Program-made: the position numbers and the translations under genes
The notes under the pieces: model-generated
Seen by the model: the letters and a program-made list of their open reading frames with translations, nothing else
What the model was told of the DNA's origin: nothing
The model's database searches: none
Assembly (NCBI GenBank): GCA_019058295.1
Contig: JAHPZI010000028.1
Coordinates: 64,001-128,000, forward strand
Length of the DNA stretch: 64,000 bases
Direction: 5' to 3'
Source: Promethearchaeota archaeon
GTDB taxonomy: Archaea > Asgardarchaeota > Lokiarchaeia > Sigyniarchaeales > SOKP01
In this document: piece by piece, positions 52,067-59,369 of the stretch
Position numbering within the stretch: the stretch's first letter is position 1
Layout: every line of letters starts with the position of its first letter

Positions 52067-54466
52067 ATGAAATCTGAGGCTATATTAAAAAGAACTTTAA
52101 GATTGAAAAACAATCTATTGTCAAGTCCTTACGAGATATGCATAGAACGAATCAAATCTGTTACCAAAATCTATAATGAAAATAAAGAAGACCCTGAAAT
52201 CATAAAAAAGGCCAAGGCTATTGCTCATTTATTAAGAAATATGACGATTTTTATTCGAGACGATGATTTACTAGTTGGGAACGAAACCAGCAAAAATTTG
52301 GCAGAAAAAATCAATTGTGATTTATTTTCTTATGAAGGGGCTTTTGGTAAAAGAGATAACGTCAAAAAATTTGTAGAAAGAAAACTCCAACCTTTTAAAA
52401 TTGAAGATCATGAAATCGATGAATTATTAGAAATAATTCCAATTTGGAAAGATAAGGCTTTATATAGCAATATAATATATCAACGACTATTAAAAGAGAA
52501 TTTACTTTCAGGAAATGGTTTAAATGCATCAATGGCACCTAGTATCGCCGTTTTATCGGGAACCAATGAAGGTCATATATCAATGGGATACGAAAAACTT
52601 TTAAAATTAGGCTATAATGGAGTTATTAAAGAGGCAGAATCGTATCAAGAACTTCTAGATAAGAACGATCCTGAATATAAAAAAAAAAATGACTTTTACG
52701 AAGCTGTGAAGATATATTATACAGCTGCGATGAATTACGCTAGGAGATATTCAATTTTAGCTAATTTAATGTCTCGAGAAGAAAAAAATCAACAGCGTAA
52801 GAACGAGCTTAATTTAATCGCCAAAACTATGAAATCTATCGCAATTGAACCTCCAAGTTCTTTTTATGAAGCAATTCAATATATTTGGTTTACTCAAAAT
52901 ATTGCTAATATCATATTTTCTAGAAGTGTATTAGCCTTAGGGAGATTAGATCAACTACTGTGGCCATATTATCAAAAAGATTTGAGAGATAATAGAATAT
53001 CACAAGATTTTGCCCTCGAATTGATTGAAGAATTGAATTTAAAATTAACTTGGAATTGTACATTATTACCTACGGATTACACTACCATATCGAACGCTCT
53101 CGGTTTGAACACGCAAACTATTACAATATCAGGTATGGATAAGGAAGGAAAAGATGCTACAAATGAGATTTCGTATCTTTTTCTAGAGGCCTATAAGAAC
53201 ATAAAATCTCTTACGTCGGATTTATCCATTAGAGTTCATGAAAATACTCCTAAAAAATTTTACATTGAGTGTATAAAGGTGTTCAAAACAACTTCTGGAA
53301 TCGCTTTTTATAACGATGATGTAATAGTTCCAGCTCTAGTTAAATCAGGGTATTCCTTAGAAGATGCTCGTGATTACGTCCTTATTGGATGTGTGGAACC
53401 AACCGGTCAAGGGAATTCTTTTGCAGCGACAGGAAGGATGTTTTTGAATCTACCTGGTGTGTTAGAATTTACTTTAAATAATGGATTTAGTAATGTATCT
53501 AGACAAATAGACGGTTTAGAAACAGGAGATCCCGGAGATTTTGCGACATTTGAGAGTTTCTATGATGCTTTTGCTCGACAGCTCCATTTTAATGTCGAAA
53601 AAACTGTGAAAATTGCGAGAATAGGGGATGAAGAAGTGATAAAATATTTCCAACAACCCTTTGTTTCTGCAAGTCTCGAGGGTTGTATGGAAAGTGGGAA
53701 AGATTACACTTCTGGTGGGGCTAAATATAATTTTTCTTCTATAACCGCTTATGGTTTTGGGACTTTAGTTGACTCTTTTTACATTATAAAAAAGATAGTT
53801 TATGATGAGAAAATAATGTCTTTGCCAGAATTAATTGAAATATTAAACTTAAATTTTAGAAGAAAAGAAAATATTCGGCAAAGTTTTATAAATAAATATG
53901 AAAAATGGGGCAATGATAATGACGATATCGACAAATTAGCAGTAAGATTGTGGGATACTTTTTGTACTGAAGTTGTTAAACATAAAACCATAAGGGGTGG
54001 TCATTATAATCCTGGAGCTTATTCAATGGGAATACATGTTATGATCGGCTTTATAACAAGAGCGTCAGCTGATGGTAGAAAAGCAATGCGCCCCCTTTCA
54101 AATAGTTTATCACCTGTAAATAATGTTGAAAAAAGTGGGATCACAGCGACACTTAACTCTATAGCTAAATTAAATTATGAATTGGCCGCCAATGGTGTAG
54201 CTGTTAACGTACGATTTCATCCCCTAAACTTTGAAAACGATGAAAATGTAGAAAAATTTTATCATCTCTTAAATGGATATTTCGGTTCAGGGGGAATGCA
54301 AATTCAACCTACAGTTGTTTCGACTGAAACCCTTAAAGATGCTCAAAAACATCCTGAAAATTATCCCGATTTAATTGTAAAAGTCGGAGGATATAATGCA
54401 ACCTTTGTTGATCTAGGAATCCCAATTCAAATGGATATAATCGATCGTTTAGAAAACAATTTGTAA
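52067..54466 (+). CDS. Glycyl radical enzyme (PFL superfamily, single-Cys GCVEP class)
   Basis: GRLDQ, IGCVEP, ADGR, DAQKHPENYPDLIVKVGGY. Confidence 0.92.
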   Translation: MKSEAILKRTLRLKNNLLSSPYEICIERIKSVTKIYNENKEDPEIIKKAKAIAHLLRNMTIFIRDDDLLVGNETSKNLAEKINCDLFSYEGAFGKRDNVKKFVERKLQPFKIEDHEIDELLEIIPIWKDKALYSNIIYQRLLKENLLSGNGLNASMAPSIAVLSGTNEGHISMGYEKLLKLGYNGVIKEAESYQELLDKNDPEYKKKNDFYEAVKIYYTAAMNYARRYSILANLMSREEKNQQRKNELNLIAKTMKSIAIEPPSSFYEAIQYIWFTQNIANIIFSRSVLALGRLDQLLWPYYQKDLRDNRISQDFALELIEELNLKLTWNCTLLPTDYTTISNALGLNTQTITISGMDKEGKDATNEISYLFLEAYKNIKSLTSDLSIRVHENTPKKFYIECIKVFKTTSGIAFYNDDVIVPALVKSGYSLEDARDYVLIGCVEPTGQGNSFAATGRMFLNLPGVLEFTLNNGFSNVSRQIDGLETGDPGDFATFESFYDAFARQLHFNVEKTVKIARIGDEEVIKYFQQPFVSASLEGCMESGKDYTSGGAKYNFSSITAYGFGTLVDSFYIIKKIVYDEKIMSLPELIEILNLNFRRKENIRQSFINKYEKWGNDNDDIDKLAVRLWDTFCTEVVKHKTIRGGHYNPGAYSMGIHVMIGFITRASADGRKAMRPLSNSLSPVNNVEKSGITATLNSIAKLNYELAANGVAVNVRFHPLNFENDENVEKFYHLLNGYFGSGGMQIQPTVVSTETLKDAQKHPENYPDLIVKVGGYNATFVDLGIPIQMDIIDRLENNL

Positions 54467-57578: not shown

Positions 57579-57771
57579 CCAAGAAAATTTTTCTTAATAA
57601 TTAGTGTTTTCTAAATTAGGATAAAATCACTAATCTTTATATTTCTTTATTATATATTAAATTAGTTCCATAATATTCTAAACATTTATTAGAACTAAAT
57701 ATATAAGTGATAAAGGATTTTTGATATGATAAAGAAGAATACAATATTAACGAAATATAAATATTGCCAGC

Positions 57772-57883
57772 GCCAGCGTATAAAACTTATAGTTAATATA
57801 AGTTTACGCAACCGAGTAGTAAGGAGGCGGCCTGCAGAGCCGTTGCGCAAGCAGCGTGGGTGCAAATCCCACCGCTGGCTCCA
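57772..57883 (+). tRNA. tRNA-Cys(GCA) with 30-nt intron (57782-57811) at 10/11, 12-nt variable arm and encoded CCA
   Basis: Acceptor GCCAGCG/CGCTGGC, U73, CCA; anticodon arm GCGGC-CTGCAGA-GCCGT; T arm GTGGG-TGCAAAT-CCCAC; the D stem TCCG/AGGA forms only after intron removal. Confidence 0.88.
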
Positions 57884-57938
57884 TTTTATTAATAAATAAG
57901 TAGTTTAAACTTGATTTTTTGGTGATCTCAATATTTTG

Positions 57939-59369
57939 ATGGTTTATAATAGCTTGACATTCCAGAAAGAGGAATTCAAAACAATCAAACCAAATGAAGT
58001 TCTAATGTATGTCTGTGGTCCCACGGTGTATGATAGCCCTCATTTGGGGCATGCTAAATCTGCTGTTGCTTTTGATCTTGTCCATCGTTATTTAAAGTTC
58101 AAAGGCTATAATGTGAAATTAGTAAAGAATTATACTGATATTGATGATAAAATAATACAAAGAGCAAATGAAAGGAACATAGATTTTAATTCATTAAGCG
58201 AGCAATATATAAAAGAATACGAGGATATCATGAATGCTTTAAACGTCGAAAAGGATTATATGAATCCACGAGCTACGGAAACCATCGATTTTATGATTGA
58301 AGTAATTCAAGGATTAATCAAAAATGAGCATGCGTATGAAAGAAATGGTTCTGTATATTATTCTGTTAAAACTTTTCCAAAATATGATTCGATATTTCAG
58401 AATGTAAAAAAAGGAGAGATACACGATGAAAATGAGGATATTGAAGATCAGGATATTGCCTATGGAGATGATAAAGAAGATCTCCGAGACTTTGCATTGT
58501 GGAAAAAACACAAAGAAGGAGAACCTTATTGGGAAAGTCCCTGGGGTAAAGGTCGCCCTGGATGGCATATTGAATGCTCGTCCATGTCAGTTAATATATT
58601 AGGTGAAACTCTTGATATCCATGGAGGAGGTCAAGATTTAAAATTTCCACATCATCGAAACGAAATAGCTCAATCAGAAGGGTATACAGGAAAGAAATTT
58701 GCAAATTATTTTATGCACAATGGCTTTGTTAATGTAGATGATGAAAAAATGTCAAAAAGCCTCGGAAATTTCTTTTTAGTTTCGGAGGTTATAAAAAATT
58801 ACGACCCAATGGTAGTAAGACTATTTCTATTTTCAAGCCATTATCGAAGTTCTATCAATTATTCTTTAGACAATATGAATCAAGCTAAAAAAAACTACAA
58901 TAGGCTTTTAAGTACTATTAGAAATATCCACGAGCTAAATATAAAAGATATTTCTTCTAAAAATATTAAAGAGTTGATTTTAGAAATCGAAAAGGCAGAA
59001 AAATCAATTATCGAAGCTATGGATGATGATTTTAATACTCCCATTGCTCTTGCTGAGTTCTTAGGATTATTTAGAGTAATAAACAGAGAAGTATTAGAAA
59101 ATAAAGTACCTATTAATAAAGATTTCAAGGATAAATTCTTTAATTTTGTAGATAATATGAATAAGATATTTGGTTTATTTCCAAATCTAAAAAGCCAATT
59201 AACACTAGGGGATGAGGTATCTCTTGATGAAAAGGGAACTACTATTCAGAATTTATTGAAAATTATTTATGATGTTAGAGCAGAGCTGAGAACCCGAAAA
59301 ATATATGACTTAAGTGATAAAATCCGTGATAAATTAAAAGAATTAGGCATTAATATTGAGGATAAATGA
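57939..59369 (+). CDS. cysS: Cysteine--tRNA ligase
   Basis: YVCGPTVY..PHLGH, DFALWK, GRPGWHIECS, FPHH.NE, KMSKSLGN. Confidence 0.97.
   Translation: MVYNSLTFQKEEFKTIKPNEVLMYVCGPTVYDSPHLGHAKSAVAFDLVHRYLKFKGYNVKLVKNYTDIDDKIIQRANERNIDFNSLSEQYIKEYEDIMNALNVEKDYMNPRATETIDFMIEVIQGLIKNEHAYERNGSVYYSVKTFPKYDSIFQNVKKGEIHDENEDIEDQDIAYGDDKEDLRDFALWKKHKEGEPYWESPWGKGRPGWHIECSSMSVNILGETLDIHGGGQDLKFPHHRNEIAQSEGYTGKKFANYFMHNGFVNVDDEKMSKSLGNFFLVSEVIKNYDPMVVRLFLFSSHYRSSINYSLDNMNQAKKNYNRLLSTIRNIHELNIKDISSKNIKELILEIEKAEKSIIEAMDDDFNTPIALAEFLGLFRVINREVLENKVPINKDFKDKFFNFVDNMNKIFGLFPNLKSQLTLGDEVSLDEKGTTIQNLLKIIYDVRAELRTRKIYDLSDKIRDKLKELGINIEDK

Follow-up and report, generated by a model that had tools for sequence, protein, structure and literature searches.

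A split tRNA-Cys gene upstream of cysS

The DNA analyzed here is a 64,000-nucleotide (nt) window from a Promethearchaeota archaeon of the order Sigyniarchaeales (assembly GCA_019058295.1, contig JAHPZI010000028.1, positions 64,001 to 128,000). At positions 57772 to 57883 of its forward strand lies a gene for cysteine tRNA (tRNA-Cys), followed after a gap of 55 bp by the ATG (57939) of cysS, which encodes a cysteinyl-tRNA synthetase (CysRS) (Table 1). The tRNA-Cys gene is genuine and nonstandard: it has an extra hairpin in the variable region, A instead of G at position 18, and G at position 55. We refer to the genome as G000; it belongs to genus g1 of family f1, called its own family below. 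Other G-numbers are genomes, and L-numbers are fetched loci. The assembly comprises 3.2 Mb in 30 contigs, has a GC content of 30.7%, and is 79% complete.

An initial annotation, made from the sequence without database searches, had the tRNA start at 57812. A 5' end at this base would leave the 3' acceptor strand, CGCUGGC (57873 to 57879), without a partner; the complement of that strand, GCCAGCG, is at 57772 to 57778. The gene starts at 57772, and 57812 is the first base of a second exon. The two exons are separated by a 30-nt intron at tRNA position 10/11 that ranked first, with 9 inner and 0 outer bp, in a scan of 57740 to 57900 for the bulge-helix-bulge (BHB) motif. A central helix of GCGU (57776 to 57779) with ACGC (57806 to 57809) is flanked by 3-nt bulges, AUA and AAC, and encloses a 9-bp inner hairpin. 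Cuts past the second base of each bulge remove 57782 to 57811, and this excision restores the tRNA. The motif has the 4-bp helix and the bulges on opposite strands, but it lacks the outer helix of the strict hBHBh' form (0 bp) and so is of the relaxed HBh' form. Orthologues without an intron start with GCCAGCGUAUCCGAG, and the exact stretch 57782 to 57811 is absent from three of them (L004, L006, and L177); two further orthologues have an intron at the same position (L010 from G004 and L023 from G014). The 72 bases of exon 2 are 100% identical in G005 and G007. The intron is presumably removed by the archaeal splicing endonuclease and ligase.

In the raw window, no tRNA was reported by ARAGORN or, at the gathering threshold, by Rfam. 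The unspliced locus scored 27.1 bits against the Rfam tRNA model (RF00005; threshold, 29 bits), with a false acceptor stem. Both programs overlook the gene because the D-arm intron splits the tRNA at 10/11. When the exons were joined in silico, ARAGORN called an 82-nt tRNA-Cys(GCA) cloverleaf with a 7-bp acceptor stem and 7/5 architecture. L177 (from G108), an orthologue that lacks the intron and has an almost identical variable arm, scored 56.7 bits as an Rfam tRNA. The Cys identity set, G34 C35 A36 plus U73 (PMC2330236, PMC9976931), is present. The start apart, the description in the initial annotation held: the 12-nt variable hairpin with its GNRA loop, the D loop without G18, the T loop with G55, the GCA, U73, and CCA, the cysS start 55 bp downstream, and an acidic CysRS segment before DFALWK can all be read in the sequence.

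Three further observations concern the gene and its flanks. First, the leader duplicates the acceptor strand (GCCAGC-GCCAGCG, 57766 to 57778). Similar duplications are found in L010, L023, L021, L005, and L019, wherever a D-arm intron uses acceptor bases 5 to 8 for the BHB central helix. In the minimum-free-energy fold the leader copy is paired with the 3' acceptor strand, and it may serve as a substitute pairing partner while splicing occurs. Second, a conserved block at about 57694 to 57745, some 30 to 80 nt upstream of the tRNA, reads AACTAAATAT.TAA.TGATAAAGG.TTTTTG.TATGATAA.G. It is at the same position in L010, L023, and L003 and is common to several genomes of the genus and family; its sole match to an RNA family is weak and snoRNA-like (13 bits; E = 5.9). 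The block could be a promoter (B recognition element [BRE]/TATA) plus a leader element. Third, the introns of orthologous tRNA-Cys genes differ by genome in 11 loci (L021, L018, L015, L027, L022, L012, L016, L178, L179, L184, and L188), lying at 10/11, in the D loop, at 37/38, or in the T loop, at times two together. Such variety at one tRNA-Cys locus illustrates fast intron turnover.

TABLE 1 Features of the tRNA-Cys and cysS locus (positions in the window)
Feature	Position	Strand	Remarks
5' leader repeat GCCAGC	57766..57771	+	Copies the acceptor 5' strand immediately upstream of the tRNA
tRNA-Cys exon 1	57772..57781	+	Acceptor 5' strand GCCAGCG, then U8, A9, U10
BHB intron	57782..57811	+	30 nt, tRNA position 10/11; top candidate in the BHB scan
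tRNA-Cys exon 2	57812..57883	+	D arm from C11, anticodon arm, variable arm, T arm, acceptor 3' strand, U73, CCA
D loop AGUAGUA	57815..57821	+	A14 G15 U16 A18 G19 U20 A21
Anticodon GCA	57834..57836	+	Within loop CUGCAGA (G37)
Variable arm UGCGCAAGCAGC	57844..57855	+	U-A, G-C, and C-G pairs (UGC/GCA stem), GCAA tetraloop, 2-nt tail GC
T loop UGCAAAU	57861..57867	+	G55; C56 and A58 retained
U73	57880	+	
CCA	57881..57883	+	Encoded
cysS	57939..59369	+	Class I cysteinyl-tRNA synthetase, 476 amino acids; HLGH, KMSKS, DALR anticodon-binding domain
Acidic segment EIHDENEDIEDQDIAYGDD	58416..58472	+	CysRS residues 160 to 178, before DFALWK

The variable arm is a recurrent insertion

Exon 2 was compared with 40 relatives by BLAST, and the loci were read individually. 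It matched orthologous tRNA-Cys genes, most of them directly upstream of cysS, at 74 to 86% identity with a length difference of 6 to 8 nt; outside the insert, the orthologues with a 5-nt loop are about 80 to 86% identical. The orthologues have one of two forms of variable region, either a 5-nt loop (UAUUC, UUAUC, and similar) or an arm of 12 to 14 nt. The arm corresponds to an insert of 7 to 9 nt between U44 and the last two or three bases of the loop. It follows from the orthology of the arm-bearing gene to 5-nt-loop genes in the same synteny that the arm was inserted into a tRNA-Cys of class I. The proposal in the initial annotation that the gene might derive from a class II tRNA was not borne out, since outside the insert it is a tRNA-Cys like its short-loop orthologues. 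By length alone the variable region would qualify as class II (12 nt, with a stem-loop, where more than 10 nt is required), but the tRNA shares neither descent with class II tRNAs nor Ser, Leu, or Sec identity.

When the 154 genomes of the order were all scanned with a sequence pattern, the arm turned up in about 50 species. Most belong to genera g2 and g11; others are in g1 (G000, G005, G007, and G008), g6 (G048), and family f4 (G027, G029, and G033). No long-arm tRNA-Cys with G55 was found in 246 other Asgard genomes outside the order, so that among the scanned Asgard genomes the combination of long arm and G55 is restricted to families f1 and f4. The arm is typical of this lineage, and G55 is spread across the phylum (see below). 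Metagenomes from marine and estuarine sediments contained 76 arm-bearing genes with 14 variants of the arm, all of which keep the helix; the viral contig collection gave no match to the arm-bearing tRNA-Cys. Some hits in the scans were false. Two in family f14 have a 15-nt intron after position 38 instead of an arm, and the CTGCAGATATGATCGCAACAAGAGCAGGTTC and CTGCAGATGTGGTCGCGGATATTTATAGTGC motif classes from the order-wide scan, which resemble long-arm tRNA-Cys, are coding sequence.

At least 16 variants of the arm are known from the genomes and metagenomes together, with the stem covarying, and they conform to the consensus U-G-N-N-(loop of 3-4)-N'-N'-C-R-N-C. In an alignment of 22 distinct sequences (A1), the four pairs of the arm are 100% paired. 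Two of these pairs change on both sides (C-G, G-C, and U-A at one; U-A and C-G at the other), and the other two change only by wobble. None of 500 shuffles matched the observed pairing, and in slid controls pairing fell to about 40%. Judged from this covariation, the arm helix is under selection to stay base paired. The loop, by contrast, is GCAA, GUAA, GAAA, UUC, UUU, AUUA, AUCA, or UUUC; because it is not conserved, the selection is for a stable hairpin and not for a sequence-specific site.

The genera differ in what accompanies the arm. In g11 (loci L190 to L204) cysS does not follow the arm-bearing tRNA-Cys, and several of the fetched copies encode CCA. In genera g1 and g2 the tRNA remains linked to cysS, and most copies do not encode CCA; G000, with both the linkage and CCA, is an exception.

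One alternative is that the hairpin is cut out as the tRNA matures, being a mini-intervening sequence or what is left of an intron in the variable region, so that a normal loop of 4 to 5 nt results. Noncanonical tRNA introns are abundant in G000 and its relatives, and a preprint (10.64898/2026.10.13.758758) lists insertions in the variable region of Asgard tRNAs, 21% of them BHB compatible. Without the hairpin, the variable loop would read UAGC or UAUC and so be similar to the UAUUC of short-loop orthologues. However, that preprint counts only inserts of at least 10 nt and mentions neither tRNA-Cys nor the arm. At 7 to 9 nt the insert is shorter than the approximately 14 nt that a BHB motif needs (one bulge base, inner helix, loop, four helix bases, and two bulge bases). 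In our scan the only candidates around 57844 to 57855 had 0 to 2 inner pairs and cut into the T stem, whereas the true intron came out on top. Furthermore, it is the stem that covaries, while the flanks, which would have to form the central helix, are unpaired. With so small an insert and no usable BHB motif around it, the arm is probably retained in the mature tRNA, and we hold its removal to be very unlikely.

G55 recurs in tRNA-Cys across the Asgard phylum

tRNA-Cys is a textbook class I tRNA, and few contacts in biology are as well conserved as the G18:Psi55 pair of the tRNA elbow. The order holds two types of tRNA-Cys: type A, usually linked to cysS and carrying A18:G55, and type B, which is canonical and accompanies SepRS. 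The gene at 57772 is of type A. Infernal aligned the AGUAGUA of its orthologue in L177 to the consensus AaUGGUA, which places A at position 18 and keeps G19. Of the conserved elbow (G18:Psi55 and G19:C56), the first pair is replaced by A18 and G55, and G19 and C56 are kept. Among the fetched type A genes, A18-G19 accompanies U54-G55-C56, and three lineages with U55 have a different base at 18, G in G016 (L020) and C in G023 (L019) and G026 (L024). This joint change at 18 and 55 is a tertiary covariation. In the mature tRNA a predicted A18:G55 contact would replace G18:Psi55, with G19:C56 retained.

A phylum-level scan found short-loop tRNA-Cys with G55 in many Asgard families, including 28 of 58 genomes of f31 and 3 of 4 genomes of f27, as well as f26, f14, f5, and f2. 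The tRNA-Cys genes of f14 likewise read AGCAGCUA with UGCAAAU. G55 is thus normal for tRNA-Cys across the Asgard phylum and not peculiar to this locus, contrary to the idea that the altered D and T loops belong specifically to this tRNA and its synthetase. A18:G55 would be a phylum-wide signature of type A tRNA-Cys. Because the deviation is lineage-wide and covaries, it is no argument against function.

Within G000, ARAGORN called 44 tRNAs, many of them intron bearing; among the ARAGORN-called tRNAs listed, G55 occurs only in two genes, both for tRNA-Cys: the one at 57772, after splicing, and a second tRNA-Cys(GCA) gene at C22:33015-33090, which keeps AAAAGUUG with UGCAAGU and hence the A18/G55 signature. 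The second gene lies in an array in which 27 intron-less tRNA genes, for most amino acids, are crowded together (C22:30303-33335; L234:10303-13335); the other tRNA genes of G000 are mostly intron bearing. The array is flanked by chromosomal genes (DHQS-II, Snf7, GH57, and WD40) and a DNA methylase (PF01555). The sequence of its tRNA-Cys matched no other genome in pattern scans of the 154 genomes of the order and of the phylum, and it matched no viral contig.

The literature collection that we searched, which is partial and so is no proof that either feature is unpublished, held no description of long-arm tRNA-Cys in Asgard archaea or of an A18/G55 elbow in tRNA-Cys. The arm and the elbow swap appear to be undescribed in the searchable literature.

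CysRS does not track the arm

The CysRS is single copy in G000 and has the attributes of a class I enzyme: the catalytic domain (tRNA-synt_1e, PF01406; E = 9.5e-125, 416 bits), the HIGH and KMSKS motifs, and the DALR domain (DALR_2, PF09190). It matches solved structures over its full length (8qhp, 8.6e-125; E. coli CysRS 1li5/1u0b, 2.6e-109). Its nearest relatives are labeled Promethearchaeota, Hod-, Thor-, Hermod-, and Lokiarchaeota. A search of general genome contigs returned only bacterial and archaeal CysRSs of about 45% identity, which are useless for synteny.

The initial annotation proposed that the tRNA and this CysRS are a co-evolved nonstandard pair, possibly open to serylation. In such a pair the arm, the elbow, or both would be identity elements read by the acidic segment, possibly with cross-reactivity to SerRS. 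Several observations agree with this. About 48 loci of the family preserve the order tRNA-Cys then cysS. The segment, which lies in the connective-peptide (CP) region, is about 7 residues longer than in the solved CysRS structures (E. coli 1li5/1u0b and 8qhp) and is specific to the family, being less acidic in E. coli, in 8qhp, and in L024 of family f3. In addition, the tRNA-Cys in the array keeps A18-G19 and G55, and G55 is found in none of the other 26 array tRNAs, which suggests that the elbow is favored for Cys.

We compared the segment among 22 CysRSs from the fetched loci, 21 from the family plus the f3 outlier L024. It is present in all 21 of the former, whether the tRNA-Cys has a 5-nt loop, an arm of 12 to 14 nt, or U55 with G18 (G016, L020); in the outlier it is shorter and less acidic. 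G55 also extends to tRNA-Cys in families beyond those in which the acidic segment has been demonstrated. A quick single-protein tree of 46 CysRSs, from which genus g11 is absent because its tRNA-Cys is not beside cysS, requires at least four changes of arm state, with arm-bearing and arm-less members side by side (for example, G008 with G001 and G117 with G110). The state of the arm is matched neither by the acidic segment nor by CysRS as a whole. The phylogeny that had been named as a check speaks against the arm half of the proposal: the tRNA is nonstandard and is linked to cysS, but co-evolution of its arm with the acidic segment is not supported.

In this CysRS no class I motif is missing, and the DALR anticodon-binding domain is in place. 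A class I CysRS contacts its tRNA from the minor-groove (D-arm) side, so that the variable region should face away from it and be exposed to solvent; the indifference of CysRS to the arm fits this known geometry. By established SerRS identity rules, U73 and an arm of 3 to 4 bp would speak against serylation. All told, a co-evolved pair is an improbable account of the locus, and the arm-bearing tRNA is presumably charged by CysRS.

Two types of tRNA-Cys and the distribution of SepRS

Type B tRNA-Cys reads GCCAGAG-UC-GCUU-AGNNNGGUNGA..., with the T loop UUCAAAU and a variable loop of 4 to 5 nt; ARAGORN calls its intron-free copies. It has G10:C25 and, in the majority of the copies read, A47, where type A has U10:A25 and U47. 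In Methanococcus maripaludis, G10:C25 is a minor identity element for SepRS only, and SepRS binds the major-groove side of the tRNA (PMC2330236). A scan with the sepS model (TIGR00470) found SepRS in about 55 of the 154 genomes of the order. It was present in all 27 genomes with a match to the type B pattern and in 37 of the 40 in which type B was found by BLAST; the three exceptions are 61 to 85% complete.

The initial annotation had called for a search for a second, canonical tRNA-Cys and for SepRS and SepCysS. A second tRNA-Cys exists, the array copy, and it has the A18/G55 signature; a canonical type B gene was not found in G000 by BLAST, by fuzzy patterns, or by a generic scan for anticodon and T arms. 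One apparent type B match, at C2:88088, is coding sequence. Neither SepRS nor SepCysS was found in the 79%-complete G000, where sepS had no match and the best match to the SepCysS model (TIGR02539) scored 28 bits against a cutoff of 365 bits. SepRS, SepCysS, and type B were likewise all not found in the sister genome G007, which is 99% complete, nor were SepRS and type B in G005. G000 thus seems to depend on CysRS and on type A together with the array copy, the second route having apparently been lost.

We tabulated arm state against SepRS for family f1 from the order-wide pattern and sepS scans, in counts that treat kin as independent. SepRS was absent from 43 and present in 3 genomes with the long arm (G008, G048, and a fragment in G072); it was present in 28 and absent from 6 with the short loop, 3 of the 6 being at most 71% complete. 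On the CysRS tree, however, the association between long arm and SepRS comes down to only four independent contrasts and is not significant (sign test, P ≥ 0.25). Family f4 combines the arm, SepRS, and a type B-like gene.

Two of the SepRS matches are split or have in-frame stops: G033:C1:2045293-2045841 plus 3332223-3333287 (two TGA) and G072:C13:4-870 (one TAG). These may be decaying genes, genes with introns, or cases of recoding; both genomes have a long-arm type A gene.

These patterns allow a reading in which the order has two partly orthogonal Cys pairs and the variable hairpin is a switch between the two routes to Cys-tRNA. The arm would sit on the face approached by SepRS and SepCysS, where it would either block SepRS and insulate type A or be fixed only once SepRS had been lost. 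The co-occurrence of type B with SepRS, the SepRS-specific G10:C25 of type B, and the f1 counts all point this way. But the independent events are few, the long arm and SepRS coexist in five genomes (G008, G048, G027, G029, and G033), and type A has a short loop in the majority of genomes with SepRS, which means that the routes can be kept separate without the arm. As an explanation of the arm we regard such a discriminator as rather unlikely, and two partly orthogonal pairs with a hairpin switch are, in our estimate, a long shot of about the same order. The association of arm and SepRS is a lead and not a result; the two-type picture with SepRS is the most interesting lead to come from this analysis.

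A neighboring gene

A few kilobases upstream of the tRNA, at 52067 to 54466, is a gene for a 799-residue PFL-like glycyl radical enzyme with PFL-like and Gly_radical domains.

Proposed interpretation and its significance

The reading that we consider probable is that the arm is a lineage-typical extra, tolerated by CysRS, on a tRNA-Cys whose elbow is A18:G55 and whose gene is split in the D arm by a BHB intron, and that the genome apparently has only the direct CysRS route. The locus would be a functional CysRS-type tRNA-Cys gene directly upstream of the only cysS of G000. Removal of the 30-nt intron from the precursor would yield a mature 82-nt tRNA with a 7/5 cloverleaf and an extra hairpin of 3 to 4 bp. 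The hairpin would be a lineage-recurrent insertion in an otherwise ordinary tRNA-Cys that CysRS tolerates and does not need. Arm and elbow are common in the relatives and are not a one-off matched to the neighboring synthetase.

Some of the data weigh against this interpretation. The arm variant UGCGCAAGCAKC recurs in g1, g11, and f4, and UGCCAUUAGGCRUC recurs in g1, g6, and g11. Recurrence across genera is not explained by neutral insertions inherited vertically; lateral exchange or selection for particular hairpins may lie behind it. That long arms are skewed toward genomes lacking SepRS suggests that the arm is not entirely neutral. Finally, because G000 is 79% complete, type B or SepRS could sit in unassembled DNA, although the 99%-complete G007 is also without both.

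In an archaeal family near the eukaryotic stem, one tRNA has been changed in two ways, by an extra arm that covaries and by the swap to A18:G55. These natural variants bear on how far the core of a tRNA can change without losing recognition by CysRS, binding to EF-1alpha, and function on the ribosome. They also expose a gap in annotation, since the D-arm intron causes standard tools to overlook the gene wholly. The pairing of type A with cysS and of type B with SepRS, together with the leaning of long arms to SepRS-less genomes, might reveal how the direct and indirect routes to Cys-tRNA are held apart or disappear, and the two-type picture is relevant to the engineering of orthogonal pairs. 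If the reading with two pairs were true, it would be a natural example of tRNA identity repartitioned through an added arm.

Comparison with known systems

With the canonical archaeal tRNA-Cys(GCA) of class I, the tRNA shares GCA, U73, G37, G15:C48, the 7/5 architecture, a G13-A22 mismatch, and orthology to the 5-nt-loop genes. It differs in that the canonical tRNA has a variable region of 4 to 5 nt and G18:U55, whereas here there are 12 nt with a hairpin of 3 to 4 bp, A18:G55, and a BHB intron at 10/11. Like the class II tRNAs (Ser, Leu, and Sec, and bacterial Tyr), it has a variable region of more than 10 nt with a stem-loop, but its arm is at the short extreme (3 to 4 bp), it has U73, and its sequence is not akin to those of Ser, Leu, or Sec tRNAs.

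Long variable arms and an association with cysS are also known in anaerobic bacteria, from the selC* tRNA-Cys and its dedicated CysRS* (Mukai et al. 2017, PMC5389517; PMC7609411). The selC* tRNAs resemble tRNA-Sec, with 8/4 architecture, an elongated anticodon stem, and in some cases a UCA anticodon; CysRS* has no anticodon-binding domain. In contrast, the tRNA described here is 7/5 with a GCA anticodon, and its CysRS has DALR_2, so it is not a selC* system. Methanosarcina mazei, as cited in PMC9976931, is reported to have two tRNA-Cys isoacceptors, one preferred by SepRS and the other by CysRS. These resemble types A and B of the relatives of G000 in being two tRNA-Cys that differ in core nucleotides alongside CysRS and SepRS; but G000 has only type A, SepRS was not found in it, and the Asgard types differ by A18:G55, by the 10:25 pair, and sometimes by the extra arm.

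The intron resembles the noncanonical BHB introns of the Thermoproteales and of Asgard archaea (PMC4090602; 10.64898/2026.10.13.758758) in its 4-bp central helix, its two 3-nt bulges, the cuts past the second bulge base, and its D-arm site, which annotation programs typically miss. It departs from them in having no outer helix, in building its central helix from acceptor bases 5 to 7 plus U8, and in being preceded by a leader that duplicates the acceptor strand.

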